Source of the DNA: a virus
Lineage: Duplodnaviria > Heunggongvirae > Uroviricota > Caudoviricetes
Length of the DNA: 18,079 nucleotides
Strand: one strand, 5' to 3'
Virus record (IMG/VR): IMGVR_UViG_2698536536_000001
Coordinates: 1-18,079 of that record
Shown here piece by piece: positions 1-16,513 of the stretch. The notes beneath the pieces were generated by a model. That model was given only the letters and a program-made list of their open reading frames with translations. It searched no databases and was not told the DNA's origin. The position numbers were made by a program, and so were the translations under genes. Numbering within the stretch: position 1 is the stretch's first letter; each line of letters begins with the position of its first letter.

Positions 1-318
1 ATGAAAAAGATAGCTGCTATATCATTAATTAGTATTTTTATTATGTCTGGTTGTGCTGTGCATAATGATGAGACAAGTATCGGTAAATTTGGTCTTGCAT
101 ATAAAAGTAATATTCAGCGTAAACTCGATAACCAATACTACACCGAAGCCGAAGCTTCTTTAGCCAGGGGTAGAATATCTGGTGCAGAAAATATAGTAAA
201 AAATGATGCAGCCCATTTCTGTGTTACTCAGGGCAAAAAAATGCAGATAGTTGACCTGAAGACAGAAGGTGCAGGATTACATGGCGTCACTCGTCTGACA
301 TTCAAATGTGGAGAGTGA
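1..318 (+). CDS. yegR: Small putative lipoprotein, 105 aa, host flanking gene
   Basis: Complete ORF from position 1. N-terminal signal peptide with lipobox-like IMSGC. Size and position next to the yegQ/cyaR/P2-remnant locus match my recollection of E. coli yegR; not verified by search. Confidence 0.55.
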   Translation: MKKIAAISLISIFIMSGCAVHNDETSIGKFGLAYKSNIQRKLDNQYYTEAEASLARGRISGAENIVKNDAAHFCVTQGKKMQIVDLKTEGAGLHGVTRLTFKCGE

Positions 319-476
319 GAATATTTTTTGGTAAGCGTCAAATATGCGCGTTCTGGCTGTGCGTAGCCGGAACCTGTGCGAGCACGATGCCGTTACGTGA
401 AAGGCATCGTGCTATGAAGGGAGATTCTATCGATGTGGTCAATGGAAGACGGTGACCAGGGATAGGGCTTATGCAT

Positions 477-503
477 AAAAAATAAGCCCGTGTAAGGGAG
501 ATT
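477..503. repeat. Left copy of 27-bp P2 att core (aaaaaataagcccgtgtaagggagatt)
   Basis: Exact 27-bp direct repeat of 16547..16573. It sits about 80 bp from the 3' end of int, as expected for a P2-type prophage junction. Confidence 0.8.
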
Positions 504-582
504 TAGGGTGTCACCAGTAGGGGCTTTCAACGGTACAATGCGGGTTTGAGCGGCATAAATTACCACTGAAAGCCCTTAAACG

Positions 583-1596
583 TTACTCTACTGTGGACAC
601 TGTGTGGACACTCTCGGCCTCAGTACCACCTCTTAGCGGATTAAGAGAAATGGCGTCCTGAAGGTACTCTGGCGCAAAATGAGCGTAAACCATAGTTTGC
701 TCAATCCGCGTGTGACCTAGTATCCGTTGTAGCGTGATAATACTTCCTCCATTAATCATGAAATGAGTGGCAAAGCTGTGCCTTAGTGCATGTGTGGCTT
801 GCCCCATTGGCAAATCCGGTTTTATTGCTTTCATTGTTCTTCTGAAGCGAGGGTAATCAGCATCAGGGAATAAAAAACCTCGTTTGTTATCCGCGATCAT
901 TTTGGCAACAGCCTCTGAGATCGGGACGGTGCGTGGTTTGTTTGTTTTCGTTTTAACAAACGTGACGCGGTTATGGATGATATTTTCTGCTTTCAAACGA
1001 GCTGCTTCTCCCCAACGTGCTCCTGTACTCAGGCAAAGAATCGCAATCTTTTTGTTGTCGCCGTCAAGTGCTGCAAGCAGTAAGGCAATTTCTTCCTGTG
1101 TGAGATAGCCTGTTTCTGGTTTTTCCTCCTTAAGCCTCTTTGTCCCTCTGATAGGGTGCTCACCAAAGAATAACTCCGCTTCAATCAGGGCTGTAAACAT
1201 GCCGCTAATACATGTTAAATCACGATTGATACTCGAAGGTTTAATACCCTGACTTCTTCGGGTGGCGCAGTACTGGCTGATAAGGGATTTCGTGATTTGA
1301 AATGCGCATGGGTCATTCGTTATTTTTGTGAAGATTTCAATTTTTCCAAGATTAGATTTCCCATGCTCTTCGTGTTTACCCTTTAAATCCCACCAGATCT
1401 GTGTCAGTTCCGACAGACGTCGTTTGTCTGTTGGTTTTGATAGCCATTCTTTATTGTGGTGGTTGTACAACGTGTATTTTTCGAAAGCGACAGCTTCGCT
1501 TTTCTTATCAAACTTCCTACGGATGCGTTTTCCGTTACGTCCAGTAGGGCGGATGTCCACTTCATATCGACCATCATCGAGTTTTTTGATTGCCAT
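583..1596 (-). CDS. int: P2-type tyrosine integrase, 337 aa
   Basis: C-terminal catalytic region carries R (TGARWGE), HALRHSF (H-x-x-R), LGHT and YAHF, the tyrosine-recombinase residues. Length equals the 337 aa I recall for P2 Int. It is at the prophage end next to the att core. Good SD (ggaggg) upstream of the ATG. Confidence 0.9.
   Translation of the reverse strand: MAIKKLDDGRYEVDIRPTGRNGKRIRRKFDKKSEAVAFEKYTLYNHHNKEWLSKPTDKRRLSELTQIWWDLKGKHEEHGKSNLGKIEIFTKITNDPCAFQITKSLISQYCATRRSQGIKPSSINRDLTCISGMFTALIEAELFFGEHPIRGTKRLKEEKPETGYLTQEEIALLLAALDGDNKKIAILCLSTGARWGEAARLKAENIIHNRVTFVKTKTNKPRTVPISEAVAKMIADNKRGFLFPDADYPRFRRTMKAIKPDLPMGQATHALRHSFATHFMINGGSIITLQRILGHTRIEQTMVYAHFAPEYLQDAISLNPLRGGTEAESVHTVSTVE
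592..611. promoter_or_regulatory. Putative Int arm-type binding sites, two direct TGTGGACAC repeats 11 bp apart
   Basis: tgtggacac occurs at 592..600 and 603..611, overlapping the 3' end of int. Related TGTGG(A/T)C motifs occur beside the right att core (16483..16513). Assignment as Int arm sites is inference from position. Confidence 0.4.
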
Positions 1597-1711
1597 CAGA
1601 AAACCCTCCGAGTGGTACTTTTTTTTGCTACTACTAATCGCTTTTTTCGTGGTGGCTGAAATTTAGCCACCAATAGTAGGCACTTGTGATGAATATATTC
1701 GCGATAAATTG

Positions 1712-2011
1712 TTAACCAGTCTTTTGACCGGAGTGGGGCGACGTTGTTTCGTTTTGCCCAAAGTGTGCGAGAGCGGGCGCAATTTGCCCGGCTTCTGGAG
1801 CTACCTGATCAGTCATGAACCACAAAGTATATTTAGTAAATCTGGGATGTTGTAAGACCTTCATTATGGCTTCAACTCCAGCGTTTTTTGACCGGCTCTC
1901 ATAGCTCGAAAGTGAGCTGTAGGCTACACCAGTTAATTCACTGAATTCTTTACGGTTTAACCTTTCAGATTCACGGATTAGCTTCAACTTCTCCGAAACG
2001 TCTATTGACAT
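1712..2011 (-). CDS. C: P2-type immunity repressor C, 99 aa from internal Met (ORF track starts further upstream at 2083)
   Basis: C-terminal sequence ...QIAPALAHFGQNETTSPHSGQKTG and the ...TKYTLWFMT... segment match recalled P2 C repressor. 99 aa from MSIDVSEKL. Divergent from cox, upstream of int as in P2. Confidence 0.8.
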   Translation of the reverse strand: MSIDVSEKLKLIRESERLNRKEFSELTGVAYSSLSSYESRSKNAGVEAIMKVLQHPRFTKYTLWFMTDQVAPEAGQIAPALAHFGQNETTSPHSGQKTG

Positions 2012-2132
2012 AATTACTCCGATTGCGTAATTTCTTGCTGATAGTGTGAAATGTTGCGCTTCTGGAGTTATCCTTTTAGGCAATAATTAGCCATTAGGAG
2101 CCATTAGAAGCACTAAGGGAGAATCGTAGCAG
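2012..2132. promoter_or_regulatory. Early control region between C and cox (Pc/Pe-type face-to-face promoters with operator-like repeats)
   Basis: Divergent intergenic region. Direct repeats ccattag(g/a)a at 2091..2099 and 2101..2109, and TTAG recurring with about 10-bp periodicity across 2076..2107. SD aagggaga precedes the cox ATG. Exact promoter hexamers not assigned. Confidence 0.45.
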
Positions 2133-2408
2133 ATGAATAGACAGCTTGTAAGCGTGACTGATGCCGTGCCTTATCAGGAGTTTGCAAAACTCATTGGTAA
2201 AACTCCAAGAGCTGTAAGGGGCATGATTGAGAAAGGGAAATTACCAGTTATTGAGATTACTGACCCTCAGTCAGTATCGGGGCGTGCTGGTGAATATTGG
2301 GTATACCTTCCGGCATGGAATAACGGACTAAAACTGGCTTATGAAAGCCGTCCTAAAGAGATTCGTGACGGCTGGTTGATGTGGTTAGGTCTCGGTGAAC
2401 CACGTTAA
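2133..2408 (+). CDS. cox: Cox excisionase / early transcriptional regulator, 91 aa
   Basis: Strong similarity to recalled P2 Cox (…PYQEFAKLIGK…GKLPVI…TDPQS.SGRAGEYWVYLPAWNNGLKLAYESRPKEIRDGWLMWLGLGEPR). Size and position match. Confidence 0.85.
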   Translation: MNRQLVSVTDAVPYQEFAKLIGKTPRAVRGMIEKGKLPVIEITDPQSVSGRAGEYWVYLPAWNNGLKLAYESRPKEIRDGWLMWLGLGEPR

Positions 2409-2418
2409 GGAGAACCGT

Positions 2419-2589
2419 ATGAATGAGCCTCGTTGTATTGCTCAGTTATTGCGTAACGAAAGCCCCAGGGCGATTGACTTCACCATCACCCACGGTAAGG
2501 GGCGTAAGGGAATCATTATCCGTACCAAAAAACAGAGTCCGTTAAAAAAGGCTCTGAGCTTTCTGAAAAGCCGGAGGGTCTGGAAATGA
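2419..2589 (+). CDS. Small early-region protein, P2 orf78-like position
   Basis: ORF directly after cox. Start chosen at the ATG preceded by aaggag (the ORF track starts at 2395). Function unknown. Confidence 0.45.
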   Translation: MNEPRCIAQLLRNESPRAIDFTITHGKGRKGIIIRTKKQSPLKKALSFLKSRRVWK

Positions 2590-3086
2590 CAGTGATGACA
2601 CTTAATCTCGTTGAAAAACAGCCAGCAGCTATGCGCCGGATAATTGGTAAGCATCTGGCCGTCCCTCGCTGGCAGGAGACATGCGATTATTATAATCAGA
2701 TGATGGAACGCGAACGGCTAACGGTTTGCTTCCATGCGCAGTTAAAACAGCGTCACGCAACGATGCGTTTTGAAGAAATGAACGACGTCGAACGTGAACG
2801 GCTGGTTTGTGCAATTGATGAACTGCGTGGGGCATTCTCAAAACGCCGTCAGGTCGGTGCAAGTGAGTATGCATATATTAGCTTTTTAACTGTCAGTCAG
2901 CGCCGTACTTTATTTATGCATGCCGGATTGACTGAAAAAGAATTCAACCAGCCATACTGGCGAATTAATGAAGAATCATGTTACTGGCGTGATGCCTTAT
3001 TCCGTGCATTACGTGAATTATTCAGCCTGTTTGAGTATGCACCGACAATTCTGACGTCGGTAAAACCAGAGCAATATCTGCATTAA
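2586..3086 (+). CDS. B: Replication gene B protein (helicase loader-like), 166 aa
   Basis: Position after cox/orf78 and length identical to the 166 aa I recall for P2 B. Start overlaps the preceding stop (ATGA), suggesting translational coupling. Confidence 0.75.
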   Translation: MTVMTLNLVEKQPAAMRRIIGKHLAVPRWQETCDYYNQMMERERLTVCFHAQLKQRHATMRFEEMNDVERERLVCAIDELRGAFSKRRQVGASEYAYISFLTVSQRRTLFMHAGLTEKEFNQPYWRINEESCYWRDALFRALRELFSLFEYAPTILTSVKPEQYLH

Positions 3087-3149
3087 GTAATTAACCAGAG
3101 TTTTTAACGCACTTAATTGTGCGGGGCTTCTTTTTGCCTGGAGAAAGTC

Positions 3150-3374
3150 ATGCATACAGTTTCTGAAAATCAGTGCGGTAAATACGCATTACTGCTGCAA
3201 CAGGCCAGAACCGAAGCACAGGCCGACGCAGCGACACGCTTTTCTTCTCATCTTGACGCCATGATTCGCCACATCACAAAGGCGGAGTTATCCCGCGTAG
3301 AGATAGTCGAGCTGCTCAGTCAGGAGTCGGAAAAATTTCACAATATCGGATTGTCTCGCGGGGAGGTGCTTTGA
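3150..3374 (+). CDS. Hypothetical early-region protein (P2 orf80 position)
   Basis: ORF with SD-like ggaga before the internal ATG at 3150; the ORF track starts at 3117. Synteny only. Confidence 0.45.
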
Positions 3375-3676
3375 TGTCCTGTTCTCGTTCAGTTGTATTA
3401 CTGAATAACGCCTTAAAAATCACCGTTATGAAAAATGGCGATCTATCTCTTATTCAACTTGGTCTTGATAAAGAAAAACGCGAAATAACTGAGTCTGTTA
3501 TCGCGATTTATCAGAACGAATTAAATCTCCTGTCTGATGTGGTCAATTTACTTGTTAAACGCGCTGTATTTCACAAGCAAATCTCCTCCGTGGATGAACT
3601 GACGAAATTAACGACAGAAATTGCCAGCTATTGCGCTGATGAATTTAAAAAACTGAACGACAAAAGGAACTGGTAA
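3371..3676 (+). CDS. Hypothetical early-region protein (P2 orf81 position)
   Basis: ORF whose start overlaps the previous stop. AT-richer than neighbours. Synteny only. Confidence 0.45.
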
Positions 3677-3900
3677 TGCCGGACAACGTAGATTTTATTC
3701 AGGAACAACAGGCTGAATTACTGGAGCGTCAGATTAACGCGGCAAGGGTAAAACATTGCGGAGCTTCTGCGCTGGTTTGCGAAGAGTGTGACGTGCCAAT
3801 ACCTGCTGCCCGTCGTGCGGCTTATCCGTCAGCCACGCGTTGTGTTTCCTGCCAGTCAGTCTTTGAAGCAAAAAACAAACATTACCGGAGAACGGCATGA
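3676..3900 (+). CDS. TraR/DksA-family C4 zinc-finger protein (P2 orf82 position)
   Basis: Translation contains C-x2-C-x17-C-x2-C (CEEC…17 residues…CVSC), the DksA/TraR zinc-finger spacing. 74 aa. Confidence 0.6.
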   Translation: MPDNVDFIQEQQAELLERQINAARVKHCGASALVCEECDVPIPAARRAAYPSATRCVSCQSVFEAKNKHYRRTA

Positions 3901-4172
3901 GTATTCGTATTGAAATTGGCGAACGTTATGTCGTTACCAGTGACAGCTTTCAGTTTATTCTCCACGAGAAAAAGAGAGCGGAAAGCGGTAAAAACGCCGG
4001 TCAGGAATGGCTGGCGGTGGTTGGTTATTATCCGAAATTAAGCCAGCTCGTTTCCGGCCTGATGCATCACGATATTCTGACCGGAAGCGCAAAGTCTTTT
4101 GCTGATTTAAACGCGCAGGTTGAGCAACTCAGCAGGCGTTGTTCAGAGGCTTTTGGCTCATATGGCCGTTAA
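3897..4172 (+). CDS. Hypothetical early-region protein (P2 orf83 position)
   Basis: ORF overlapping both neighbours (ATGA-type junctions). Synteny only. Confidence 0.45.
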   Translation: MSIRIEIGERYVVTSDSFQFILHEKKRAESGKNAGQEWLAVVGYYPKLSQLVSGLMHHDILTGSAKSFADLNAQVEQLSRRCSEAFGSYGR

Positions 4173-5753
4173 AGCCTCCGGGCGTTTTGTCCCTCCTTCA
4201 GCATTTGCTGCAGGCACCGGTAAGGCGTTTACCGGTGCTTATGCATGGAACGCGCCACGCGAGGCCGTCGGGCGCGAAAGACCCCTTACACGTGACGAGA
4301 TGCGTCAGGTGCAAGGTGTTTTATCCACGATTAACCGCCTGCCTTACTTTTTGCGCTCGCTGTTTACTTCACGCTATGACTACATCCGGCGCAATAAAAG
4401 CCCGGTATTGAGCGTTACGCCGCCGCAGAGGGTGATGTGGGGATGTTTATCACGCTGACCGCGCCGTCAAAGTATCACCCGACTCGTCAGGTCAGAAAAG
4501 GCGAAAGTAAAACCGTTCAGCTTAATCACGGCTGGAACGATGAGGCATTTAATCCAAAGGATGCGCAGCGTTATCTCTGTCGTATCTGGAGCCTGATGCG
4601 CACGGCATTCAAGGATAATGATTTACAGGCCTACGGTTTGCGTGTCGTTGAGCCACACCACGACGGAACGCCGCACTGGCATATGATGCTTTTTTGTAAT
4701 CCACGCCAGCGTAACCAGATTATTGAAATCATGCGTCGCTATGCGCTCAAAGAGGATGGCGACGAAAGAGGAGCCGCGCGAAACCGTTTTCAGGCAAAAC
4801 ACCTTAACCGGGGCGGTGCTGCGGGGTATATCGCGAAATACATCTCAAAAAACATCGATGGCTATGCACTGGATGGTCAGCTCGATAACGATACCGGCAG
4901 ACCGCTGAAAGACACTGCTGCGGCTGTTACCGCATGGGCGTCAACGTGGCGCATCCCACAATTTAAAACGGTTGGTCTGCCGACAATGGGGGCTTACCGT
5001 GAACTACGCAAATTGCCTCGCGGCGTCAGCATTGCTGATGAGTTTGACGAGCGCGTCGAGGCTGCACGCGCCGCCGCAGACAGTGGTGATTTTGCGTTGT
5101 ATATCAGCGCACAGGGTGGGGCAAATGTCCCGCGCGATTGTCAGACTGTCAGGGTCGCCCGTAGTCCGTCGGATGAAGTTAACGAGTACGAGGAAGAAGT
5201 CGAGAGAGTGGTCGGCATTTACGCGCCGCATCTCGGCGCGCGTCATATTCATATCACCAGAACGACGGACTGGCGCATTGTGCCGAAAGTTCCGGTCGTG
5301 GAGCCTTTGGCTTTAAAAAGCGGCATCGCCGCGCCTCGGAGTCCTGTCAATAACTGTGGAAAGCTCACCGGTGGTGATACTTCGTTACCGGCTCCCACAC
5401 CTTCTGAGCACGCCGCAGCAGTGCTTAATCTGGTAGATGACGGTGTTATCGAATGGAATGACCAGGAGGTCGTGAGGGCGCTCAGAGGTGCATTAAAACA
5501 CGGTCTGAGAAGACCAAACCGTCAGCAAAGAAACGGAAGCCCGTTAAAACCGCATGAAATAGCGCCATCGGCCAGACTGACCCGGTCGGAACGAATGCAA
5601 ATTACCCGTATCCGCGTTGACCTTGCTCAGAACGGTATCAGGCCGCAGCGATGGGAGCTTGAGGCGCTGGCGCGTGGTGCAATTGTGAACTATGGCGCAA
5701 AAGAATTTCATTACCATGTTCAGAAGGCGTGGGAAGCATTTTCGAGGTGGTAA
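4162..5753 (+). pseudogene. A: Rolling-circle replication initiator gene A, apparently frameshifted
   Basis: N-terminal frame MAVKASGRF… from 4162 ends at 4458. The C-terminal frame opens at 4398 and runs to 5753. The two frames are reconciled by a 1-nt change in the A4 run at 4396..4399. The C-terminal part carries an HUH motif (HHDGTPHWHMMLF) and a two-tyrosine motif (YIAKYISK). The combined length of about 530 aa is shorter than the roughly 760 aa I recall for P2 A. Confidence 0.7.
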
Positions 5754-5863
5754 TCTAAATATGAAAAATCTGCACACCGAAACACTCTTGTAGGTTGATA
5801 ATTTGCAAACTAGGTGGATTTACTCTTTGATGTGTAAGAAGTTATACTACAAAAAATTGATTT

Positions 5864-6784
5864 ATGGGCTTGGCGATGTATAACGATCCTTATAGTGACC
5901 CAAAAGCGTGGGAATCATATTTCAAAAATATTGTTTGGCTACATTATAAGCCTGCTAACTGTTGTGACTTGCCAGATGAGCATGGAGGCGACTTTGGGCT
6001 GGAGTGTTACACTCTGAGTGGTCATGTTTTTCAGTGTTACTTGCCTGAGCAGTCGAGTGATATTGATAAGCTTTATAAAGCGCAACAAAAAAAGATTTAT
6101 ACTGATATAAAAAAGTTTTCTCAGGATAACATTAAAGAATTAGAGGAGCTTTTTGGCACATTAAAAATTAGCCGCTGGATATTAGCTACACCATATAATA
6201 AATCGGCGAAATTAAGTCAATATTGCACAAAAAAATCATTAAAAGTAAGAGAGTTAGGGATTTCTTACGTTGCTGATGATTTTCAAATAGTAGTGCAAAC
6301 AGATCGAAATTATATAGAAGAAGCGTTCTTTCTTCGCAAAAATAACTATCAATTAAGCTTTAATATAAATGATGCGACGGCTGAGAATGCTGCTAACTTT
6401 ATTAGTGAAAATACATCTTTTTTAGATAAGCTAAATTTAAAATTACCTAAGATAAATGATGATGTATCTAGGCAGGGTTTATATAGAGAGTTTTTAATAC
6501 AAAAATATCTTGATTATCAAAACTTGCTGGATGCTTTGAAGAGAGACTGGGTTGATATCTATGAAATTATCTATAACTGTGTTCAACATAGAGAACGTAA
6601 TTTGGTAGGTCTCTTTCTTCTTACTTCATCAGATGCGAAACCATCAGATATAATGAAAGATGAAATCGCTTTGTTAAAGAAATGTATTGAAGAGGAAGTT
6701 AGTACGCTTAAACAGGCTGACTTGGATAAGATAACATGGGGAGTTATTTCTGATTGGCTTATAAGATGCCCTTTAGATTTTTAG
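5864..6784 (+). CDS. Cargo gene 1: unknown 306-aa protein, candidate effector of a defence operon
   Basis: Long ORF in a sharply AT-rich block directly after A, in the P2 tin/old hotspot position. N-terminal Cys/His-rich patch (NCCDLPDEHGGDFGLECYTLSGHVFQCY). No motif assignable by eye. Confidence 0.6.
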   Translation: MGLAMYNDPYSDPKAWESYFKNIVWLHYKPANCCDLPDEHGGDFGLECYTLSGHVFQCYLPEQSSDIDKLYKAQQKKIYTDIKKFSQDNIKELEELFGTLKISRWILATPYNKSAKLSQYCTKKSLKVRELGISYVADDFQIVVQTDRNYIEEAFFLRKNNYQLSFNINDATAENAANFISENTSFLDKLNLKLPKINDDVSRQGLYREFLIQKYLDYQNLLDALKRDWVDIYEIIYNCVQHRERNLVGLFLLTSSDAKPSDIMKDEIALLKKCIEEEVSTLKQADLDKITWGVISDWLIRCPLDF

Positions 6785-6785
6785 A

Positions 6786-7262
6786 ATGGAAAAGCAAATG
6801 CATATAACGATAGATGAAATAATAGGAAGGCCGTTTACGTTTAATAAACGACCTGAACATTTGCCATGTGATATGAGACCATTGTGGCGTTGCAGTTTGT
6901 TGCTGATAATATTCCTTGTCACAGGGAGAGCTGGTTGCTGTTCTTTAAAAAAACTTCATTTAATTAATTGGATGTTAAAGTCAGAGAATAATGAAGCAAT
7001 GTTTGAATTCTGGCTTTTAAACAAAGAAGGTTTAAAGCCTGAAGTAAGATTGGATCCAACTTTAGATAGAGCAATACAGCTATTATTAGCAGAGGATTTT
7101 ATTTTGAGAAATGAACGAGCGTTCAAAATAAATGAAAAGGGGCTTAAGGTCGCTGAGAAATTGCTTTCTCTTGATGTGTTCAAAGAAGAAAGGTTGGTGC
7201 TAAATAAACATAAGGCTGGACTGTCCGAAACTAACATTAATAAAATATTTCAGGTGGGTTAA
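6786..7262 (+). CDS. Cargo gene 2: unknown 158-aa protein
   Basis: Starts 2 bp after the gene 1 stop and ends 1 bp before gene 3. Same AT-rich composition. Contains one hydrophobic stretch (LWRCSLLLIIFLVTG). Confidence 0.55.
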   Translation: MEKQMHITIDEIIGRPFTFNKRPEHLPCDMRPLWRCSLLLIIFLVTGRAGCCSLKKLHLINWMLKSENNEAMFEFWLLNKEGLKPEVRLDPTLDRAIQLLLAEDFILRNERAFKINEKGLKVAEKLLSLDVFKEERLVLNKHKAGLSETNINKIFQVG

Positions 7263-7263
7263 T

Positions 7264-9285
7264 ATGTCGTTGGAAATTATTTCATTGGAGTTAGTAGCAA
7301 ATACTTCGGATGGGCGTTATGGTGTTAGTATACCTTTTTCAAATGGCTTGTTTTTATTAAGAGTTGAGAATTCTCATGGTAAATCAACTTGCATGAATGG
7401 GATTGCATATGCACTTGGGATGGAAAAGGCATTAGGTGTCGGTTCTGGAAAAATCCCATTCCCTCCATCTTTGACTAGAGCACTAACGACAAAAGATAAT
7501 GTTGAAGTTAGTGTAATATCATCTTATGTTTTGCTAAAAATAAAGAATCATAAGGGAATAGAAGCATCTTTGAAAAGGAATATTATCGGTCACGATAATA
7601 ATAATGTTATTTATATAGATGAGAAGAATAATGTAAAAAGTAAGAGTGGTACTTATTTTTTACATAGAGAGGGCGATACTGAAAGGGAACGTGGTTTCTA
7701 TAAGTGGTTAGCTGATTTTATAGGTTGGAGTTTGCCAAATGTTCCAAACCATAATGGGAAGGACACTATTCTTTATCCATCCGTACTTTTCCCTGCATGG
7801 TATGTTGAGCAAAAAAAAGGATGGTCGTCAATTATGGCGACTGTACCAACACAATTTGGAATTAAAGAGCCAAAGAAAAGAGCTCTAGAATTTTTAATGT
7901 CTCTTGATGTTAATGATAATATTTTATTGCGTAGTTCGTTAAGAAATGAACTTGATATTATTTATCATGATTGGAAGTTAATTAAACACAATGCAGAAGT
8001 TATTGCTTCTAAATTGTCGTCAGTTGTCACAGGGATTCCTGAACAACCAGTGGCAAAATTTGATCATTATAAGATAGATTTGATTATTAAAAATGGTAGT
8101 GTCGTTAGATCTATTGTTGATGTTCGTAATGAACTGGAAAAAGAGTTGCAAGAAATTAAGTTTGACACTCTTGGTGAGCAAGAAGAACAAACTTTACAAT
8201 TATCAGTGGTTAAGTTATTAGGTCAAAAAAATGATGAAATTAACTCTCTGGAATTAAAGATTAAAGAGATTTGTGAGCATAGAAGTTATATTCAATATCA
8301 AATTCAGGCGACCAAAAACAGATTGTATAATCTGTTGGAAGATAAAAGGAAGTATGAAGATTTAAAGAAAATATCATCTTCGGATGCGTATAAGTCAACA
8401 GATTTAATGTCAAATATTTGTCCGACTTGTGGTGCAAGTTATAATGATAATTTGCTAAGTTTTTCATCGCAAGAAAATCTGATGACATATGAAGATAGTT
8501 TGAACTTTATTAAAGAGCAAGTAAAAGCATTTGAGTTTGTTCTGTCGGATAGTGAAAAGCAATTAAAGCTTAAAGATGTTGAGAGGAGTGATTTAGAGGG
8601 GGAAATAGCCAAGATTAGAGTTGATATTAATGCATTAAGGGAGTCAAAATATCCCTCAATGGTTGTTCAGGAGGAGTTTCTGAGACGTAAAATAAACATT
8701 GAGAATAAAATTAATGCCATTAACGATGGCATTAAAAGTATATTGGACATTAGACTGGAGTTGGATTCATTACACCGTAGATATAAAAAGCTTATCGCGA
8801 AAAGAAAAGGGTTGCCAGATAATTTCTTGTCGCGTAATGATGCCGATAAGTTAAAATTTCTTAATAAAGAAGTCGTTGCACGATTAGAAAAATATAATTT
8901 TACAAGTTTTGATTCTAAACTTGTGTCAATATCAGAAGATAATTACTTACCTACTAGGGAAGGATATGATATAGGTTTTGACACATCAGCTAGTGATGGA
9001 ATAAGAATCATTTGGGGTTATTTAATAAGTTTATTTGTTGTTGGTTCTAAATTTCAAACAAATCACCCTGGATTGATTGTGTTTGATGAGCCTCGTCAAC
9101 AAGAAGCAAATAAAGTAAGTTTTGCCGAGTTACTTAAAGATGCTGCAGAAACAACAAAAGGACAAGGGCAGATCATTTTTGCTACATCAGAAGATGAAAA
9201 TGTCTTAAAAGAGGCATTAGAAGGGTATGACTATACAATGATATCCTTTGATAAGAACAATGGGAAATTGTTGAGGAAATTATAA
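7264..9285 (+). CDS. Cargo gene 3: SMC/Rad50-like ABC ATPase with coiled-coil arms, 673 aa
   Basis: N-terminal Walker A-like P-loop VENSHGKST (about 7366..7389). Long K/E/L-rich heptad-like middle region. CPTC motif at 8419..8430 near the middle of the coiled coil. C-terminal Walker B/D-loop GLIVFDEP (about 9071..9094). Confidence 0.75.
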   Translation: MSLEIISLELVANTSDGRYGVSIPFSNGLFLLRVENSHGKSTCMNGIAYALGMEKALGVGSGKIPFPPSLTRALTTKDNVEVSVISSYVLLKIKNHKGIEASLKRNIIGHDNNNVIYIDEKNNVKSKSGTYFLHREGDTERERGFYKWLADFIGWSLPNVPNHNGKDTILYPSVLFPAWYVEQKKGWSSIMATVPTQFGIKEPKKRALEFLMSLDVNDNILLRSSLRNELDIIYHDWKLIKHNAEVIASKLSSVVTGIPEQPVAKFDHYKIDLIIKNGSVVRSIVDVRNELEKELQEIKFDTLGEQEEQTLQLSVVKLLGQKNDEINSLELKIKEICEHRSYIQYQIQATKNRLYNLLEDKRKYEDLKKISSSDAYKSTDLMSNICPTCGASYNDNLLSFSSQENLMTYEDSLNFIKEQVKAFEFVLSDSEKQLKLKDVERSDLEGEIAKIRVDINALRESKYPSMVVQEEFLRRKINIENKINAINDGIKSILDIRLELDSLHRRYKKLIAKRKGLPDNFLSRNDADKLKFLNKEVVARLEKYNFTSFDSKLVSISEDNYLPTREGYDIGFDTSASDGIRIIWGYLISLFVVGSKFQTNHPGLIVFDEPRQQEANKVSFAELLKDAAETTKGQGQIIFATSEDENVLKEALEGYDYTMISFDKNNGKLLRKL

Positions 9286-9408
9286 ACTTTTATGTTGCTG
9301 CATTAGAATGCATGATTATTGTTTATCTGTTAAGAGTGCTCCGTGCCAGTGTCGGCGCGGAGAAATCATGTCATGCACCTGCATTAAAACCGACCCATGA
9401 AGCGGGCG

Positions 9409-9427
9409 GGCGAGGCGGGGAAAGCAC
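9409..9427. other. Putative cos site (19-nt cohesive end ggcgaggcggggaaagcac)
   Basis: Matches the P2 cohesive-end sequence as I recall it. Lies in the GC-rich intergenic region between the hotspot cargo and Q, where cos sits in P2. Confidence 0.55.
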
Positions 9428-9565
9428 TGCGCGCTGGCGGTGGTGCTGATTTTATTTTCCAGCGTCTCAGCGCGTCGTGACGGCGCTTAGTCTGCCCGTT
9501 GGGGGTTGGTGTGTCTGCGGGGTGTTTTGTGCGGTGGTGAGCGAGTGAGGGCGTGATGACGGGGT

Positions 9566-9589
9566 ATAAAAAAGCCGCCCGCAGGCGGC
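9566..9589 (-). terminator. Rho-independent terminator downstream of Q
   Basis: Minus-strand hairpin gccgcc-tgcg-ggcggc (stems at 9574..9579 and 9584..9589) followed by a U-run (a-run 9566..9573 on the plus strand), directly 3' of the Q stop. Confidence 0.5.
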
Positions 9590-9594
9590 GATGT

Positions 9595-10629
9595 TCAGCC
9601 GTTGTCAGTGTCCAGTGAGTAGTTTTTAAAGCGGATGACCTCCTGACCGAGCCAGCCGTTTATCTCGCGGATCCTGTCCTGTAGCGGGATAAGCTCATTG
9701 CGGACAAAGACCTTTGCCACTTTCTCAATATCACCCAGCGACCCGACGTTCTCCGGCTTGCCGCCCATCAACTGAAAGGGGATGCGGTGCGCGTCCAGCA
9801 GGTCAGCGGCGCTGGCTTTTTTGATATTAAAAAAATCGTCCTTCGTTGCCACTTCACTGAGCGGGATAATTTTGATGCCGTCGGCTTTCCCCTGTGGGGC
9901 ATAGAGAAACAGATTTTTAAAGTTGTTGCGGCCTTTCGACTTCACCATGTTTTCGCGGAGCATTTCGATATCGTTGCGATCCTGCACGGCATCAGTGACG
10001 TACATGATGTATCCGGCATGAGCGCCGTTTTCGTAATACTTGCGGCGGAACAGTGTGGCTGATTCATTCAGCCAGGCAGAATTAAGGGCGCTGAGATATT
10101 CCGGCAGGCCGTACAGCTCCTGATTGATATCCGGCTCCAGCAGGTGAAACACGGAGCCGGGCGTGAAGGCTGTCGGCTCGTTGAAGGACGGCACCCACCA
10201 GTAAACATCCTCCTCCACGCCACGGCGGGTATATTTTGCCGGTGAGGTTTCCAGTCTAATGACCTTACCGGTGGTGCTGTAACGCTTTTCCAGAAACGCA
10301 TTACCGAACACCAGAAAATCCAGCACAAAGCGGCTGAAATCCTGTTGCGAAAGCCACGGATGCGGGATAAATGTCGAGGCCAGAATATTGCGTTTAACGT
10401 AAATCGGTGAGCTGTGATGCACGGCAGCACGCAGGCTTTTCGCCAGACCGGTAAAGCTGACCGGCGGCTCATACCATCTGCCGTTACTGATGCACTCGAC
10501 GTAATCCAGAATGTCACGGCGGTCGAGTACCGGCACCGGCTCACCAAAGGTGAAAGCCTCCATTTTCGGGGCGCTGGCGGTCATTTTTTTTGCCTCAGGT
10601 TGCGGTGTTTTCCCTTTTTTCTTGCTCAT
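9595..10629 (-). CDS. Q: Portal (capsid) protein Q, 344 aa
   Basis: 344 aa, the length I recall for P2 Q. N-terminus MSKKKGKTPQP… Adjacent to cos and in P2 orientation. Confidence 0.85.
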   Translation of the reverse strand: MSKKKGKTPQPEAKKMTASAPKMEAFTFGEPVPVLDRRDILDYVECISNGRWYEPPVSFTGLAKSLRAAVHHSSPIYVKRNILASTFIPHPWLSQQDFSRFVLDFLVFGNAFLEKRYSTTGKVIRLETSPAKYTRRGVEEDVYWWVPSFNEPTAFTPGSVFHLLEPDINQELYGLPEYLSALNSAWLNESATLFRRKYYENGAHAGYIMYVTDAVQDRNDIEMLRENMVKSKGRNNFKNLFLYAPQGKADGIKIIPLSEVATKDDFFNIKKASAADLLDAHRIPFQLMGGKPENVGSLGDIEKVAKVFVRNELIPLQDRIREINGWLGQEVIRFKNYSLDTDNG

Positions 10630-10940
10630 CAGTAAAACTCCAGAATGGTGGATGTCAGCGGAGTGCTGATACCGGCGGTGAGTGGCTCATTTAACAGGGC
10701 GTGCATGGTTGCCCAGGCGAGGTCGGCGTGGCTGGCTTCCTCGCTGCGGCTGGCCTCATAGGTGGCGCTGCGTCCGCTGCTGGTCATGGTCTTGCGGATA
10801 GCCATAAACGAGCTGGTGATGTCGGTGGCGCTGACGTCATATTCCAGACAGCCACGGCGGATAACGTCTTTTGCCTTGGCCGACATCGTGCTCAACAGTA
10901 CGCAGGCGTCTTTCTGTACCGAATACCGCGTCGTGACCGG
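10629..10940 (-). pseudogene. P: 3' remnant of terminase large-subunit gene P, truncated by deletion
   Basis: Open frame whose stop overlaps the Q start (ATGA), as for P-Q in P2, but only about 100 codons remain before it collides with gene I on the opposite strand. Upstream boundary is approximate. Homology to P not verified. Confidence 0.4.
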
Positions 10941-10948
10941 AGGCTCGG

Positions 10949-11479
10949 ATGAGTGATTCGCGACTGCTGCCGACCGGCTCATCACCGCTTGAGGTCGCCG
11001 CCGCAAAAGCCTGTGCGGAAATTGAAAAAACGCCGGTCAGTATTCGTGAGCTGTGGAACCCGGACACCTGTCCGGCAAATCTGCTGCCGTGGCTGGCGTG
11101 GGCGTTTTCGGTCGACAGGTGGGATGAAAAGTGGCCGGAAGCGACAAAACGCGCCGTTATCCGCGATGCGTATTTCATCCACTGTCATAAGGGCACTATC
11201 GGTGCAATCCGGCGTGTGGTGGAGCCGCTCGGCTATCTCATCAACGTGACGGAGTGGTGGGAAAACAGTGACCCGCCAGGCACCTTCCGGCTTGATATTG
11301 GTGTTCTGGAAAGTGGCATCACAGAGGCAATGTATCAGGAAATGGAACGGCTGATTGCTGATGCCAAACCTGCAAGCCGTCACCTTATTGGCCTGAACAT
11401 TACCCGGGACATTCCCGGCTACCTGTTCGCCGGTGGTGTGGCTTACGACGGCGATGTAATTACGGTTTACCCCGGATAA
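10949..11479 (+). CDS. I: Baseplate assembly protein I, 176 aa
   Basis: 176 aa with sequence matching recalled P2 gpI (MSDSRLLPTGSSPLEVAAAKA…). SD ggagg upstream. Immediately followed by H. Confidence 0.8.
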   Translation: MSDSRLLPTGSSPLEVAAAKACAEIEKTPVSIRELWNPDTCPANLLPWLAWAFSVDRWDEKWPEATKRAVIRDAYFIHCHKGTIGAIRRVVEPLGYLINVTEWWENSDPPGTFRLDIGVLESGITEAMYQEMERLIADAKPASRHLIGLNITRDIPGYLFAGGVAYDGDVITVYPG

Positions 11480-11489
11480 GTGAGGAATA

Positions 11490-13700
11490 ATGAGCACAAA
11501 ATTCAGAACCGTTATCACCACTGCCGGTGCAGCAAAGCTGGCAGCGGCAACCGCGCCGGGAGGGCGGAAGGTCAACATTACCACGATGGCCGTCGGGGAT
11601 GGCGGTGGTAAATTGCCTGTCCCGGATGCCGGACAGACCGGGCTTATCCATGAAGTCTGGCGACATGCGCTGAACAAAATCAGCCAGGACAAACGAAACA
11701 GTAATTATATTATCGCAGAGCTGGTTATTCCGCCGGAGGTGGGCGGTTTCTGGATGCGTGAGCTTGGCCTGTACGATGATGCGGGAACATTAATTGCCGT
11801 GGCGAACATGGCCGAAAGTTATAAGCCAGCTCTTGCCGAAGGCTCAGGGCGTTCGCAGACCTGTCGCATGGTCATCATCGTCAGCAGTGTGGCCTCAGTG
11901 GCGCTGACCATTGACACCACAACGGTGATGGCGACGCAGGATTACGTTGATGACAAAATTGCAGAGCATGAACAGTCACGACGTCACCCGGACGCCTCGC
12001 TGACCGCAAAAGGTTTTACTCAGTTAAGCAATGCGACCAACAGCACGTCTGAAACACTGGCCGCAACGCCGAAAGCGGTAAAGGCCGCGTATGATCTTGC
12101 TAACGGGAAATACACTGCGCAGGATGCCACCACAGCGCGAAAAGGCCTTGTCCAGCTCAGTAGCGCCACCAACAGCACGTCTGAAACGCTCGCCGCAACA
12201 CCAAAAGCGGTAAAGGCAGCATATGACCTGGCTAACGGGAAATATACCGCACAGGACGCCACCACAGCGCGAAAAGGCCTTGTCCAGCTCAGTAGCGCCA
12301 CCAACAGCGATTCTGAAACGCTTGCGGCAACGCCAAAGGCGGTAAAAGCAGCATATGACCTTGCTAACGGGAAATACACTGCACAGGATGCCACCACGGC
12401 GCGAAAAGGTCTTGTCCAGCTCAGTAGCGACACCAACAGTGATTCTGAAACGCTGGCCGCAACACCAAAAGCGGTGAAGTCTGCCTATGACAATGCTGAA
12501 AAACGTCTTCAGAAAGATCAGAACGGTGCGGATATTCCGGGAAAGGATACCTTCACGAAAAATATCGGTGCCTGTCGTGCTTATAGCGGTGCTTTGAGCA
12601 CTGAAGCCGGAAACTGGACAACCGCTCAGTTTATTGACTGGCTAGAGTCTCAGGGAGCCTTTAATCATCCCTACTGGATGTGCAAGTGTTCCTGGTCATA
12701 CGGTAATAACAAAATTATTACCGATACTGACTGTGGGACGATTCATCTTGCAGGTTGCGTGATTGAGGTTATGGGCGTTAAAGCAGCAATGACCATTCGT
12801 GTGACCACTCCGAGTACATCAAGCGGTGGTGGTACCACCAGTGCGCAATTCACGTATATCAATCACGGAGCTGATTATGCGCCGGGCTGGCGACGCGACT
12901 ACAATACGAAAAATAAGCAACCGGCTTTTGCATTAGGGAAAACAGGAAATACGGTTGCAAATAATAAAGCGGTAGGATGGAACTGGGACAGTGGTGCTTA
13001 TTGTGCAAAGGATGGCGGAGCATCCAAAATGGTGCTGCATTTTTACACGGGTGAGGGAAGTTGTCCGGCAATGCAGTTTCTTGTGGATTATAAAAACAGG
13101 GGGATTTTTTACAGGTCGGCACGTGATTGGTATGGATTTGAGGCTGACTGGTCAGAGTTTTATACCACATCACGAAAGCCAACACCTGCGGATATTCTTG
13201 CTCTGGCATTATCAGGTGGAAGCATGTCAGGCAGCATAAAATTTATCAATGATGCCTTCCTGATTTGGGAAAGAAACACTGATTGGGCGAAAATTGGATT
13301 TAAAAATGATTCAGATGCTGATTCTGACTCATACATGTGGTTTGAAACTGGTGATAATGGCAATGAATATTTTAAATGGCGCATCAGGTCTGGCAGCACA
13401 ACAAAAGATCTGATGACGCTTAAGTCTGATGCACTACGGGTTACCGGGCAGGTGATACCATCAAATTTCAGCAATTTTGACTCCCGCTATGTCCGGGATA
13501 TCCGGCTTGGTGGTGCCGCCACATACAAACCTGCGAACAATGGCATGACATGGACACATCAGGCACCGTCCGGGTGTGTATATACCGGCATTATTGTTCA
13601 GGATACCGGCTCAAACTCTGCCGATAACATTGGTGGCGTATATTACAGACCGGTTCAGAAATACATTAACGGGACGTGGTACAACGTGGCGCAGGTATAA
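11490..13700 (+). CDS. H: Tail fibre protein H, 736 aa, with internal tandem repeats
   Basis: Conserved P2-type N-terminus (MSTKFRTVITTAGAAKLAAA…). Central 44-aa tandem repeats. C-terminal part is lower in GC and presumably the receptor-binding region. SD gagga upstream. Followed by G. Confidence 0.85.
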   Translation: MSTKFRTVITTAGAAKLAAATAPGGRKVNITTMAVGDGGGKLPVPDAGQTGLIHEVWRHALNKISQDKRNSNYIIAELVIPPEVGGFWMRELGLYDDAGTLIAVANMAESYKPALAEGSGRSQTCRMVIIVSSVASVALTIDTTTVMATQDYVDDKIAEHEQSRRHPDASLTAKGFTQLSNATNSTSETLAATPKAVKAAYDLANGKYTAQDATTARKGLVQLSSATNSTSETLAATPKAVKAAYDLANGKYTAQDATTARKGLVQLSSATNSDSETLAATPKAVKAAYDLANGKYTAQDATTARKGLVQLSSDTNSDSETLAATPKAVKSAYDNAEKRLQKDQNGADIPGKDTFTKNIGACRAYSGALSTEAGNWTTAQFIDWLESQGAFNHPYWMCKCSWSYGNNKIITDTDCGTIHLAGCVIEVMGVKAAMTIRVTTPSTSSGGGTTSAQFTYINHGADYAPGWRRDYNTKNKQPAFALGKTGNTVANNKAVGWNWDSGAYCAKDGGASKMVLHFYTGEGSCPAMQFLVDYKNRGIFYRSARDWYGFEADWSEFYTTSRKPTPADILALALSGGSMSGSIKFINDAFLIWERNTDWAKIGFKNDSDADSDSYMWFETGDNGNEYFKWRIRSGSTTKDLMTLKSDALRVTGQVIPSNFSNFDSRYVRDIRLGGAATYKPANNGMTWTHQAPSGCVYTGIIVQDTGSNSADNIGGVYYRPVQKYINGTWYNVAQV
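12010..12495. repeat. Tandem coding repeats inside H, 132-bp unit, about 3.7 copies
   Basis: Units begin at about 12036, 12168, 12300 and 12432. They are roughly 90% identical, differing mainly at third codon positions, and encode ATNSTSETLAATPKAVKAAYDLANGKYTAQDATTARKGLVQLSS. Confidence 0.85.
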
Positions 13701-13703
13701 TTT

Positions 13704-14231
13704 ATGCAGCATTTGATAAATATAACGGCAGGTAATCCAAAAACGGTTGAACAATATCAATTGACAAAGGACTTTGATGTTGTCTGGTTTTTTTCAGAAG
13801 ATGGTAAGAACTGGTACGAAGAACAAAAGTATTTTGCTGATGACACGATAAAAATAGCGTACGACAAAGATAATATTATCCGCTATGTGGAAAAGGATGT
13901 GACAGCTATCAGACCGGATGGATTAAGTGTGGTTGAAGTGGTGGATATTACTGCTAATCGACGGGCGGACATTTCAGGGAACTGGATGTTTAAGGACGGC
14001 AAAGTGATTAAACGCATTTATACGGCAGAGGAATTGCGGCAGCAGGCAGAAAACCGGAAAGCCAGACTTCTTGCAGATGCTGAATCCGTGATTTTGCCGC
14101 TGGAGCGCGCGGTCAGACTGAACATGGCAACAGATGAGGAGCGTAGCCGACTGGAAGCATGGGAACGCTACAGCGTTCTGGTCAGTCGTGTGGAGCCTGC
14201 AAATCCTGAATGGCCGGAAATGCCGCAATAA
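13704..14231 (+). CDS. G: Tail fibre assembly protein G, 175 aa
   Basis: 175 aa, directly downstream of H as in P2. Start is 3 bp after the H stop. Confidence 0.8.
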
Positions 14232-14412
14232 GTTGTATGAGCTTACATATCTATTGCGTAGAGTAAAGCATAATCTGACAGTCCGCTCTGTGCCAGAAGC
14301 GGACGTAGCGGCAGCATACATAACCTTATGATTTCTTAAAATTTTCCGCTTGGTTTCTGATTGACTAATGAAAATTAATTGAAATTATAAAGCATTCGCA
14401 GTAACTTGTGCG

Positions 14413-14658
14413 GTGCCGATAATTTCATTCTACCCAATATCATTTATGATTGTAGATAAGAGTAGTGAAAAATATAACAACGGATATAGTGTTGCAATAC
14501 CACTTGGAGCCGTGAAAATGGAACTGGCCGATGATGTACTAAAAATAAACCTTTCATCATGGAATGATATTAAAACAGGATTTCCTTACACAGGGATTAA
14601 TGAGTATGAGTTACTCATATTAGATGAGAATCTTTCATTTATAACTTATAAAAAATAA
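14413..14658 (+). CDS. Hypothetical small protein in the Z/fun hotspot position (start uncertain)
   Basis: AT-rich ORF between G and FI. The ORF-track start is a GTG; an alternative ATG lies at 14446. No clear SD. No recognisable motif. Confidence 0.3.
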   Translation: MPIISFYPISFMIVDKSSEKYNNGYSVAIPLGAVKMELADDVLKINLSSWNDIKTGFPYTGINEYELLILDENLSFITYKK

Positions 14659-14713
14659 CAATTAACAATACTTCACTTATGTGTGAGTGGTTTTAAAGAG
14701 TAAATAATTCATA

Positions 14714-15016
14714 ATGGAAAAAAGTATGACAATTGAAACCATAAAAATACTAGCGGCAATTAGTAGCATCATTGGTTCTATGATTCTTGCCTATCGAGTT
14801 ACAGGGATTCTTGCAGCACTTTCTCTTGCAATAGATTGCCATGAAGAAAACATTAAACAATTAATGCCAACCAATAAGGGGGATGTTTATTATCTCGCAA
14901 ATGCAACTACGCACGTTAAAAATGCGCAAAAGAAACCGCTTCTAATCACGGGGTTTATCTTTCTAATTGCATCTGGTTTTTTGCAGTTTACAGCGTTGAT
15001 AATGGCAAATATTTAA
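14714..15016 (+). CDS. Small membrane protein, about 100 aa with two predicted transmembrane helices
   Basis: Hydrophobic segments IKILAAISSIIGSMILAY…GILAALSLAI and LLITGFIFLIASGFLQFTALIMANI. AT-rich. Followed by a terminator at 15186..15213. Confidence 0.5.
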   Translation: MEKSMTIETIKILAAISSIIGSMILAYRVTGILAALSLAIDCHEENIKQLMPTNKGDVYYLANATTHVKNAQKKPLLITGFIFLIASGFLQFTALIMANI

Positions 15017-15185
15017 CAATGGAATGATACCACCGGTGGTGCGGCTGAAACGATTTGTACGTCATTTAAGCCGCATCGAAATTTAAAGTAACGTCCGCAA
15101 TTCGCTCCAAGCAGACTGTCAGATTTGATAGCGTTTTGGCTATGTAAATTGTCAGTCGGAAAATGAGTGAATACAAATCAGGACA

Positions 15186-15213
15186 GGCGGGCTGATTGCC
15201 CGCCTTTTCTTTA
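15186..15213 (+). terminator. Rho-independent terminator after the Z/fun-position cargo
   Basis: Hairpin ggcgggc-tgatt-gcccgcc followed by ttttcttt. Confidence 0.55.
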
Positions 15214-15308
15214 TCTGTTGTTTCATCCCCTGACCAGCCAGGTCAAATAGCGTCTCATGCTCTGCACAACAGAAAATAGTTGCACCCATTAACCACGGAG
15301 TTAAACGG

Positions 15309-16145
15309 ATGAGTGACTATCATCACGGCGTGCAGGTGCTGGAGATTAACGACGGCACCCGCGTCATTTCCACCGTATCCACTGCCATTGTCGGCATGGT
15401 CTGCACGGCCAGCGATGCGGATGCGGAAACCTTTCCCCTCAATAAACCTGTGCTGATTACCAATGTGCAGAGCGCAATTGCAAAGGCCGGTAAAAAAGGC
15501 ACGCTGGCGGCGTCGCTGCAGGCCATCGCCGACCAGTCAAAACCGGTCACCGTTGTTGTGCGCGTGGAAGACGGCACCGGCGACGACGAGGAAACGAAAC
15601 TTGCGCAGACCGTTTCCAATATCATCGGCACCACCGACGAAAACGGTCAGTACACCGGCGTAACGGCAAAGTGGTTACACACCAAAGACCCGAAGCCGCA
15701 AAAGCAGAAGGTAAAACTGAAACGCAAAAAGAAAGAAAAACACCTGCGCGCACTGGAGCACCCGAAAGCGAAACCGGTCACGCAGAAGAAAGCGCCAAAA
15801 GTACCGGAAGCGCGCGAAGGTGAATACATGGCCGGTGAAGCTGACAACGTTTTTGCCCTGACTACGGTATATGCCACGAAAGCACAGGCCATGCGCGCCG
15901 CTCAGGCGAAGTGGGATAAACTGCAACGGGGCGTTGCGGAGTTCTCCATCAGCCTTGCCACTGGTCGTGCTGATATTTACACGGAAACACCGGTCAGAGT
16001 GTCAGGCTTTAAGCGCGTCATAGACGAGCAGGACTGGACCATCACTAAGGTGACACATTTTCTGAATAATAGCGGCTTCACGACGTCCTTGGAGCTTGAG
16101 GTCAGGCTTTCTGATGTGGAGTACGAAACAGAAGATGATGAGTAA
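15309..16145 (+). pseudogene. In-frame fusion remnant: tail sheath FI N-terminus joined to tail protein D C-terminus (yegZ-like)
   Basis: First ~118 residues ([14 protein letters not shown]…TDENGQYTG) match the recalled P2 FI sheath N-terminus. The C-terminal ~100 residues lie immediately upstream of ogr, where gene D ends in P2. The two are joined by a Lys-rich linker. FII, E, T, U and most of FI and D are missing. Confidence 0.65.
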
Positions 16146-16226
16146 TGTTTTTATTTTATCTGTTTGTTTTATAAGGATAAATTAACTAAAATGGCACCGT
16201 CAACAAAACCGGAAGAGGTGCTCGCG

Positions 16227-16445
16227 ATGTTTCATTGTCCTTTATGCCAGCATGCCGCACATGCGCGTACAAGTCGCTATATCACTGACACGACAAAAGA
16301 GCGTTATCACCAGTGTCAGAACGTGAATTGTAGCGCCACGTTCATCACTTATGAGTCGGTACAGCGATACATCGTGAAGCCGGGAGAAGTCCACGCCGTA
16401 AGGCCGCACCCGTTGCCATCAGGGCAGCAAATTATGTGGATGTAA
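16227..16445 (+). CDS. ogr: Late-gene transcription activator Ogr, zinc-finger protein, 72 aa
   Basis: Sequence MFHCPLCQHAAHARTSRYITDTTKERYHQCQNVNCSATFITYESVQRYIV… matches recalled P2 Ogr, with C-x2-C…C-x4-C zinc-finger cysteines. Start taken at the internal ATG with SD ggaagagg, not the upstream ATG at 16164. Confidence 0.9.
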   Translation: MFHCPLCQHAAHARTSRYITDTTKERYHQCQNVNCSATFITYESVQRYIVKPGEVHAVRPHPLPSGQQIMWM

Positions 16446-16457
16446 TTACAAACAGAA

Positions 16458-16482
16458 AGCCCCTCAGTCGAGGGGCTTTTTT
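16458..16482 (+). terminator. Rho-independent terminator of ogr
   Basis: Hairpin agcccct-cagtcg-aggggct followed by tttttt. Confidence 0.6.
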
Positions 16483-16513
16483 GTCGATGTGGTCAATGTG
16501 TGGACGTGACCAG
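16483..16513. promoter_or_regulatory. Arm-type repeat region next to the right att core (tgtggtcaa / tgtggacgt)
   Basis: Sequence gtcgatgtggtcaatgtgtggacgtgaccag contains two TGTGG(A/T)C motifs. A close copy of this segment also occurs at 429..458 in the left flank. Confidence 0.4.

Follow-up and report, generated by a model that had tools for sequence, protein, structure and literature searches.

The locus and its prophage

The window analysed here is a stretch of 18,079 nt (IMG/VR virus record IMGVR_UViG_2698536536_000001) in which a P2-like prophage lies between yegR on one side and cyaR and yegQ on the other (Table 1). The prophage is bounded by two identical att cores, and the left one (477-503) is identical to the attP core of phage P2, which occupies 24356-24382 of the P2 record AF063097. 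The P' arm and int region of the window is 98% identical to P2 24355-25720 and carries the Int P' arm repeats TGTGGACA at 592-599 and 603-610; the attR region shows 97-99% identity to P2.

The prophage itself (477-16573) is a defective P2 of about 16 kb, compared with 33.6 kb for the complete phage. Three stretches of AF063097 are missing from it: about 0.7 kb within gene A, the part running from inside P to the end of J (the capsid, lysis and most baseplate genes), and the part running from FI to halfway through D. Upstream of cos, a Lamassu defence cassette of three genes at 5864-9285 (LmuA, 306 aa; LmuC, 158 aa; LmuB, 673 aa, as assigned by PADLOC) takes the place of tin/old; Pfam searches with these three proteins gave no match for any of them. 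Within the H tail-fibre gene, 12008-12491 holds three to four tandem 132-bp repeats of 84-86% identity, of which P2 has a single copy.

Table 1. Features of the window between yegR and yegQ (positions in nt of the 18,079-nt stretch).
Feature	Position	Strand	Remarks
yegR	1-318	+	ORF; small predicted lipoprotein gene
Flank holding the relic	319-476		between yegR and the left att core
Hairpin AGCACGATGCC / GGCATCGTGCT	381-412		perfect 11-bp stem; no T-run
AAGGGAGATT	417-426	+	identical to the last 10 nt of the att core
Putative relic of the P2 Int arm-type site of the P arm	430-459	+	homologous to 16484-16511
Remainder of the P-arm IHF region	460-476	+	16 bp shorter than in P2
attL core of the present prophage, AAAAAATAAGCCCGTGTAAGGGAGATT	477-503	+	27-mer identical to 16547-16573; also attB locI
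P' arm of the present prophage	504-613	+	Cox sites and Int P' arm repeats (P2 annotation); overlaps the 3' end of int
int	583-1596	-	start of the P2-like element, which runs through to ogr
ogr ORF as listed	16164-16445	+	ogr of P2 length at about 16227-16445
Phage P arm	16446-16546
Putative Int P-arm site of the present prophage	16484-16511	+	annotated type, partner of the relic; maps onto P2 24293-24320
Predicted IHF binding site of the P arm	16515-16548	+	mapped onto P2 24324-24357
attR core, AAAAAATAAGCCCGTGTAAGGGAGATT	16547-16573	+	3' half of the CyaR terminator
cyaR sRNA gene	16550-16635	-	Rfam RF00112, 100.7 bits (gathering score 47), E=1.7e-19; terminator is the att core
yegQ/trhP	16718-18079	-

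A second copy of the P arm lies outside the left core

The flank between yegR and the left core, which would be expected to be bacterial DNA, resembles the arm next to the right core. A repeat search paired 416-464 with 16470-16518 (49 nt, 71% ungapped) and 469-503 with 16539-16573 (35 nt, 91%), the offsets of the two pairs differing by 16 bp. Within the first pair, TCGATGTGGTCAATG at 430-444 recurs at 16484-16498, adjoining the right core, and GTGACCAG at 452-459 recurs at 16504-16511. The arm-like copy reported in the preliminary description is therefore real; the string is 32 nt long and spans 429-460 rather than 429-458, its right-hand partner at 16483-16513 being correct as given. Across the window the 15-mer TCGATGTGGTCAATG has just two occurrences (at 430 and 16484), against 0.03 matches expected, and none of 200 shuffles contained two or more. 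Local alignment of 319-475 with 16446-16548 gave a score of 22, compared with 8.2±1.3 for dinucleotide shuffles, none of 2000 of which reached 22.

The P2 record annotates 24293-24320, which corresponds to 16484-16511 of the window, as 'protein_bind Int, P arm', followed by an IHF site at 24324-24357; two further Int repeats are marked in the P' arm. Since the right-hand copy is thus P2's annotated Int P-arm site, the left-flank copy is a homologue of that site. Arm repeats of the P2 type have the consensus tgTGGaCa (PMC3448106). A test for two direct repeats of this type about 11 nt apart found one of the two intact in the flank. The first, TGTGGTCA (434-441), is identical to the first P-arm repeat of P2, as are the 15 nt around it; the second, GGAAGACG (444-451), is degenerate and agrees with the P2 repeat TGTGGACG at 5 of 8 positions, after which GTGACCAG is again identical to P2.

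Neither a P2-like IHF site nor the P2 spacing between repeats and core is retained, 16 bp being gone in the majority allele of E. coli and 4 bp in longer ones. These minority alleles carry an additional 12 bp, are more P2-like and restore part of the IHF region (ATCAATCC... compared with ATAAATCC... in P2), and the common allele is hence a form with a further deletion. Over the IHF part the long alleles read ATCAATCC(T/G)T.. where P2 has ATAAATCCTT, so that of the IHF site only ATCAATCC.. survives there; the allele strings are GGGATCAATCCGTCTCT.., ..CCGTATTTACAG.. and ..CCTTCTTTACAG...

Further from the core, the hairpin at 381-412 falls opposite the ogr terminator hairpin of P2 in MAFFT and in global alignments. 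A promoter and terminator scan over the relic found neither, and the hairpin was not called as a terminator. Judged by its sequence, the whole of 381-476 is a decayed copy of a P2-type attP P arm, in which a terminator-like hairpin, the pair of Int arm-type repeats and an IHF region of reduced length follow in that order. One feature of the copy counts against a relic: perfect blocks of 15 and 8 nt stand beside strongly diverged stretches, which is uneven for uniform neutral decay.

The decamer AAGGGAGATT lies 3 nt to the left of the arm-like copy. It occurs three times in the window, in the two cores and at 417, where 0.03 copies are expected in the whole window; scaled from that expectation, the chance of finding any of the 18 core decamers in the 158-nt flank is about 0.005. 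It also aligns in register with GAGGGGCTTTT, the tail of the 3' half of the ogr terminator (7/11), and is polymorphic among E. coli, with AAGGAGGATT and AAGGGGGATT in other strains. The partial core of the preliminary description is accordingly present (at 417-426, not 416-425) and unlikely to be fortuitous, although its origin from a core is unproven given the register match and the polymorphism. By sequence it could have come from one more copy of the core, or else from a terminator tail that has diverged.

The flank is part of a species-wide insert at the att core

Positions 300-503 of the window are found at ≥80% coverage in 5373 of 5426 complete E. coli genomes (~99%). The segment is contained in uninterrupted yegR-attB-cyaR-yegQ sites (loci L001 and L003), and the reconstructed empty junction is matched at ≥80% by 4572 genomes, including K-12-type genomes with the two pieces joined. 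In K-12 the segment adjoins the D'-ogrK remnant. One of the uninterrupted sites, from E. coli ST131 (L003, 1330-1500), has an extra, AT-rich stretch of about 170 bp immediately behind the yegR stop codon that is lacking in other strains.

Outgroups were taken from a scan for the conserved cyaR loops with one genome per species, which gave at least 120 loci; among those listed there is one non-coli Escherichia, and E. albertii, E. fergusonii and Salmonella are not among them. In at least 96 non-E. coli species listed, yegS lies in the same block. In 54 of these, all Enterobacterales and among them Escherichia sp. E1V33, its start is ≤150 bp from the core (74-145 bp, measured to the core in the cyaR terminator), and in 27 of the 96 listed the distance is 151-450 bp. 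In E1V33, whose yegQ has 93% nucleotide identity to that of the window, yegS lies 85 bp from the core, and the yegS-cyaR spacer contains neither yegR nor arm-like sequence. The corresponding distance in E. coli is 874-1060 bp. These distances show that some 800 bp in E. coli are a derived insertion, placed precisely at the att core. The insert is thus lineage-specific at a known att site, and its base composition is atypical, with 33-40% GC compared with 50-58% in yegS and yegQ. A direct yegS-cyaR junction was matched contiguously in none of the 5426 E. coli genomes, a weak result as megablast aligned only the cyaR part of the query.

The preliminary description held that occurrence of 413-458 at an unoccupied attB would mark it as genuine host sequence. 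It does occur there in about 99% of E. coli, but the conclusion does not follow, because the outgroups show the whole yegS-cyaR spacer of E. coli to be a derived insertion. Presence in empty sites is hence no proof of ancestral host DNA, a point of relevance to prophage-boundary callers and to studies of att sites. Many P2-like prophage predictions in IMG/VR (L143-L222) start exactly at the yegR start codon, as the window does; callers that set the boundary there include the ancient relic in their calls.

Additional DNA at this position is found elsewhere. Among the loci listed, the interval from yegS to the cyaR core holds an additional 0.5-4.4 kb in 15 of the 96 other species (long-spacer loci L019, L116, L117, L112, L045, L033, L036, L101, L022, L066, L088, L039, L109 and L118), and some of these have P-arm-like sequence beside the core (Buttiauxella L088, Citrobacter L039 and Raoultella L109/L118). 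Another integrated element uses the same cyaR core in the attL junctions of L151 and L206 and in 4 further IMG/VR loci; its junction reads AAGGG|CGTTTTTCAGGGTAGGTAACATG instead of continuing into the P2 P' arm. The site is a hotspot used repeatedly, where remnants have decayed to differing degrees.

The far end of the insert resembles attL

On the yegS side, outside the window, E. coli and E1V33 align up to ...GAAAGTCGGAGG. Past this point E1V33 continues into the core and cyaR whereas E. coli continues with TAAAAAGTCAGTTCAAGCATGGGTAATT CAGTTGTTACCACCAGGAGCTTGCAATGG, which is colinear with the P2 core and the first 30 nt of the P' arm (score 17 compared with 8.5±1.3 for shuffled sequences, 0/2000). 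The 30 nt that follow the degenerate core agree with P' at 21 of 30 positions, with a score of 10 compared with -4.3±2.5 (p<0.0002), and the same 30 nt show no match to cyaR (p=0.32). The degenerate left core alone, with 17 of 27 positions identical, is not significant when its position is left free (p=0.43); what makes it significant is the P'-like stretch of 30 nt beside it, together with the place where it was predicted to lie. Direct repeats of the core, with phage arms pointing inward, thus enclose the insert, the left core by itself being weak. An attL-like relic on one side and a P-arm relic with an intact core on the other are the signature of P2-type integration followed by internal deletion.

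The arm is a phage feature

A TCGATGTGGTC-N3-4-TGTGGAC-type motif is found, with a few substitutions, in the P arms of P2-like cyaR prophages of Citrobacter, Buttiauxella and Enterobacter, and also in those of WPhi and a Klebsiella phage. The IHF region is likewise common, with a few substitutions, to all of these P arms. In contrast, GTGACCAG after the second repeat is absent from the other-genus, WPhi and Klebsiella arms, and the E. coli flank shares it only with P2. Since the arms are common to phages of other genera and the flank has GTGACCAG in common with P2 alone, the arm is a phage feature and the host copy derives from an arm of P2 proper, which speaks against convergence.

yegR and the interior of the insert

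yegR lies within the low-GC, E. coli-specific insert between yegS and the cyaR terminator. Among the loci listed it is absent from this position in E1V33 and the other species sampled, and YegR homologues at this locus are essentially limited to E. coli and Shigella. Relatives of 58-79% identity in other taxa sit in unrelated chromosomal neighbourhoods. Some homologues (among L125-L134) shortly precede a conserved ORF of 108-110 aa, a nitroreductase gene and ivy, and others of the same set lie between a bestrophin-like gene and a MerR-family gene. These differing neighbourhoods indicate that the YegR family has moved between loci. We considered whether divergent YegR homologues might mark less decayed relics in other Escherichia lineages and rejected this, as they belong to unrelated loci or to error-prone assemblies. 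A Pfam search with YegR gave nothing above threshold, and our literature search on yegR found nothing relevant.

Several observations on the interior count against the relic reading. No phage genes survive in the insert, yegR being the only gene present, and the YegR homologues found elsewhere are chromosomal rather than phage-borne. When the insert interior was compared with the phage collection at the DNA and protein levels, only records that include the host flank matched, and the 80 loci with YegR kept from IMG/VR are all E. coli prophage calls starting at yegR, with no phage-borne copy among them. In C. youngae, a P2-like prophage carries a cargo ORF in the interval from ogr to the P arm, which provides a precedent for cargo at the position of yegR. 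We consider that yegR probably arrived as cargo of the ancient element, and the orphan gene thereby gains a hypothesis for its origin.

Origin of the relic

Collectively our data favour, with a probability of about 0.75, a reading in which the left flank is the relic of a P2-type element far older than the present prophage, fixed in E. coli along with yegR, whose core was reused as attB. An element with a P2-type integrase and att site would have entered the 3' half of the cyaR terminator in an E. coli ancestor, and nearly all of it would then have been deleted. What was left by yegS would be the degenerate attL (the core and about 30 nt of P' arm), followed by about 0.7 kb of low-GC DNA with yegR, and on the right side the P-arm relic and the intact right-hand core. 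The relic would subsequently have become fixed, and its intact core, formally its attR, would be today's attB locI, reused by later P2-like phages; such later arrivals would include the K-12 remnant PR-X and the defective prophage of the window. The order of these events, the arrival of yegR as cargo and the present lack of function of the relic are what we infer from the remains. The scar of an earlier P2-like element with a reused att, as the preliminary description put it, thus stands insofar as the flank is the relic of a P2-type att site whose core served as attB for the present prophage. It is neither recent nor strain-specific, however: the relic is species-wide, measures about 0.8 kb with yegR included, and has its attL-like end outside the window.

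A fortuitous resemblance between the flank and the P arm, for which only the shortness of the match could be cited, is to our minds practically excluded, and we rejected it on the shuffle controls (0/2000 and 0/200). The flank copy furthermore has the same orientation as the P arm, lies at nearly the same distance from the core and is colinear with the extended match at the core flank, and the long alleles extend the match. Were the homology instead due to ancestral host DNA that P2 had captured by aberrant excision, the segment would be expected at an unoccupied attB and in nearly all E. coli, as is indeed observed. We nevertheless rejected such a capture as very improbable, because the arm repeats and IHF region, which are annotated Int and IHF sites, recur with a few substitutions among P2-like phages from other genera and also where the core differs, as in WPhi, the degenerate copy is the one in the host, and the outgroups among the loci listed do not have the segment.

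An alternative closer to the favoured reading is the literal model of the preliminary description, that of nested or tandem scars, in which AAGGGAGATT is left over from an older core. An element carrying yegR would then have occupied the interval between the attL relic on the yegS side and this older core at 417-426; a second P2-like phage would have entered the older core, and a deletion from the right edge of that core to the phage's own P arm would have left a fragment of the core next to the P-arm relic and the present core. The perfect agreement of the decamer with the 3' end of the core, its low probability by chance and its closeness to the arm relic are what such a history would produce, and repeated occupation with partial deletion is seen at this very site in K-12 PR-X, with its truncated attL core, and in the defective prophage of the window. 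However, the 17 nt to the left of the decamer are not core-like (5/17) and form the 3' arm of the perfect hairpin, so that a second rearrangement would be needed. No recognisable P-arm relic lies to the left of the decamer, which in addition varies among E. coli and is in register with the ogr-terminator tail. We therefore consider nested scars possible but unlikely, and retain a single ancient element as the preferred history of the flank.

Possible residual function

Conservation of the flank was measured on 84 E. coli sequences representing 28 alleles, of which 80 came from IMG/VR loci; 80 of the 84 are lysogens and the alleles are non-independent. While 35 of the 158 sites vary, an invariant run of 31 nt falls exactly over the arm relic (permutation p=0.006), and an exact word of ≥28 nt over the relic is kept in 5223 of 5426 genomes. 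Given that the sequences are mostly from lysogens and the alleles are non-independent, we treat this invariance as a mere hint of Int binding.

The retained repeat might be functional if the N-terminal domain of P2 Int bound it as a B-arm site in attB or attL, where it could add to the preference for locI or modulate excision and be kept by selection, unless ascertainment accounts for its retention. The identity of the first repeat and its flank with those of P2 (15/15) and the invariant run would fit such a role. It is set against the loss of the second repeat and of the spacing to the core, and against the failure of the scan over the relic to find promoter or terminator signals; there is moreover no evident selective reason at the level of the host. 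For tyrosine integrases of the P2 Int type, attB is thought to need only core-type sites. We regard a function of this kind as improbable. The same low standing applies to the fuller proposal that locI is the attR of the ancient relic, that Int may still bind 434-441 and its flanks, and that yegR is fixed cargo delivered by a phage. If it were true, the bound relic site would help to make locI preferred, or would alter the architecture of attL and excision.

Comparison with known systems

The ancient element, as we read it, makes the 'host side' of a classic attachment site itself phage-derived, with the cyaR terminator occupied again and again. Three generations would be represented at one locus, namely the ancient relic with yegR, PR-X in K-12 and the present defective prophage. 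No new mechanism is revealed by this, and the relic is an ordinary kind of genomic fossil.

Barreiro and Haggård-Ljungquist reportedly described, in 1992, a cryptic P2 remnant at locI of E. coli K-12, and it is possible that the flank homology was already noticed in the P2 att work of that year. The MG1655 annotation 'cryptic prophage PR-X' (yegZ/D', ogrK and attR) covers 2167183-2167811 and stops short of the arm relic and of yegR. PR-X resembles the relic in that it uses the same core at the cyaR terminator, is a P2-type prophage reduced by deletion and has kept its P arm and an intact right-hand core. It differs in being recent and strain-specific, with an ogr and D fragment 96-97% identical to P2 and an intact P arm, whereas the relic, which lies on the yegR side of PR-X, is older, is present in about 99% of E. 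coli, contains no phage gene and has a half-decayed P arm. The phage-derived boundary in the K-12 map hence extends beyond PR-X, and the relic is missing from the current annotation. At the left junction of PR-X (L002, 2670-2700) approximately the first 19 nt of the attL core are followed directly by the D fragment (AAAAAAATAAGCCCGTGTAG|CAGAG...), which implies that the deletion began inside the core.

Compared with the P arm of P2 attP (24293-24357), the relic has the same order of hairpin, two repeats, A/T-rich IHF region and core, with blocks of 15 and 8 nt identical. It departs from it in the loss of the second repeat (GGAAGACG in place of TGTGGACG), in an IHF region shorter by 16 bp (4 bp in the long alleles) and in a different hairpin that has no T-run.

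Finally, the insert resembles the decayed att-flanked islets found at tRNA, tmRNA and sRNA genes, and 'grounded' prophages, in being a low-GC, lineage-specific insert at the 3' end of a small RNA gene, with one intact and one degenerate att repeat and an orphan gene aboard. It differs from them in that a well-studied phage prefers its surviving core as attB, and in that the arm relic matches experimentally annotated protein-binding sites.
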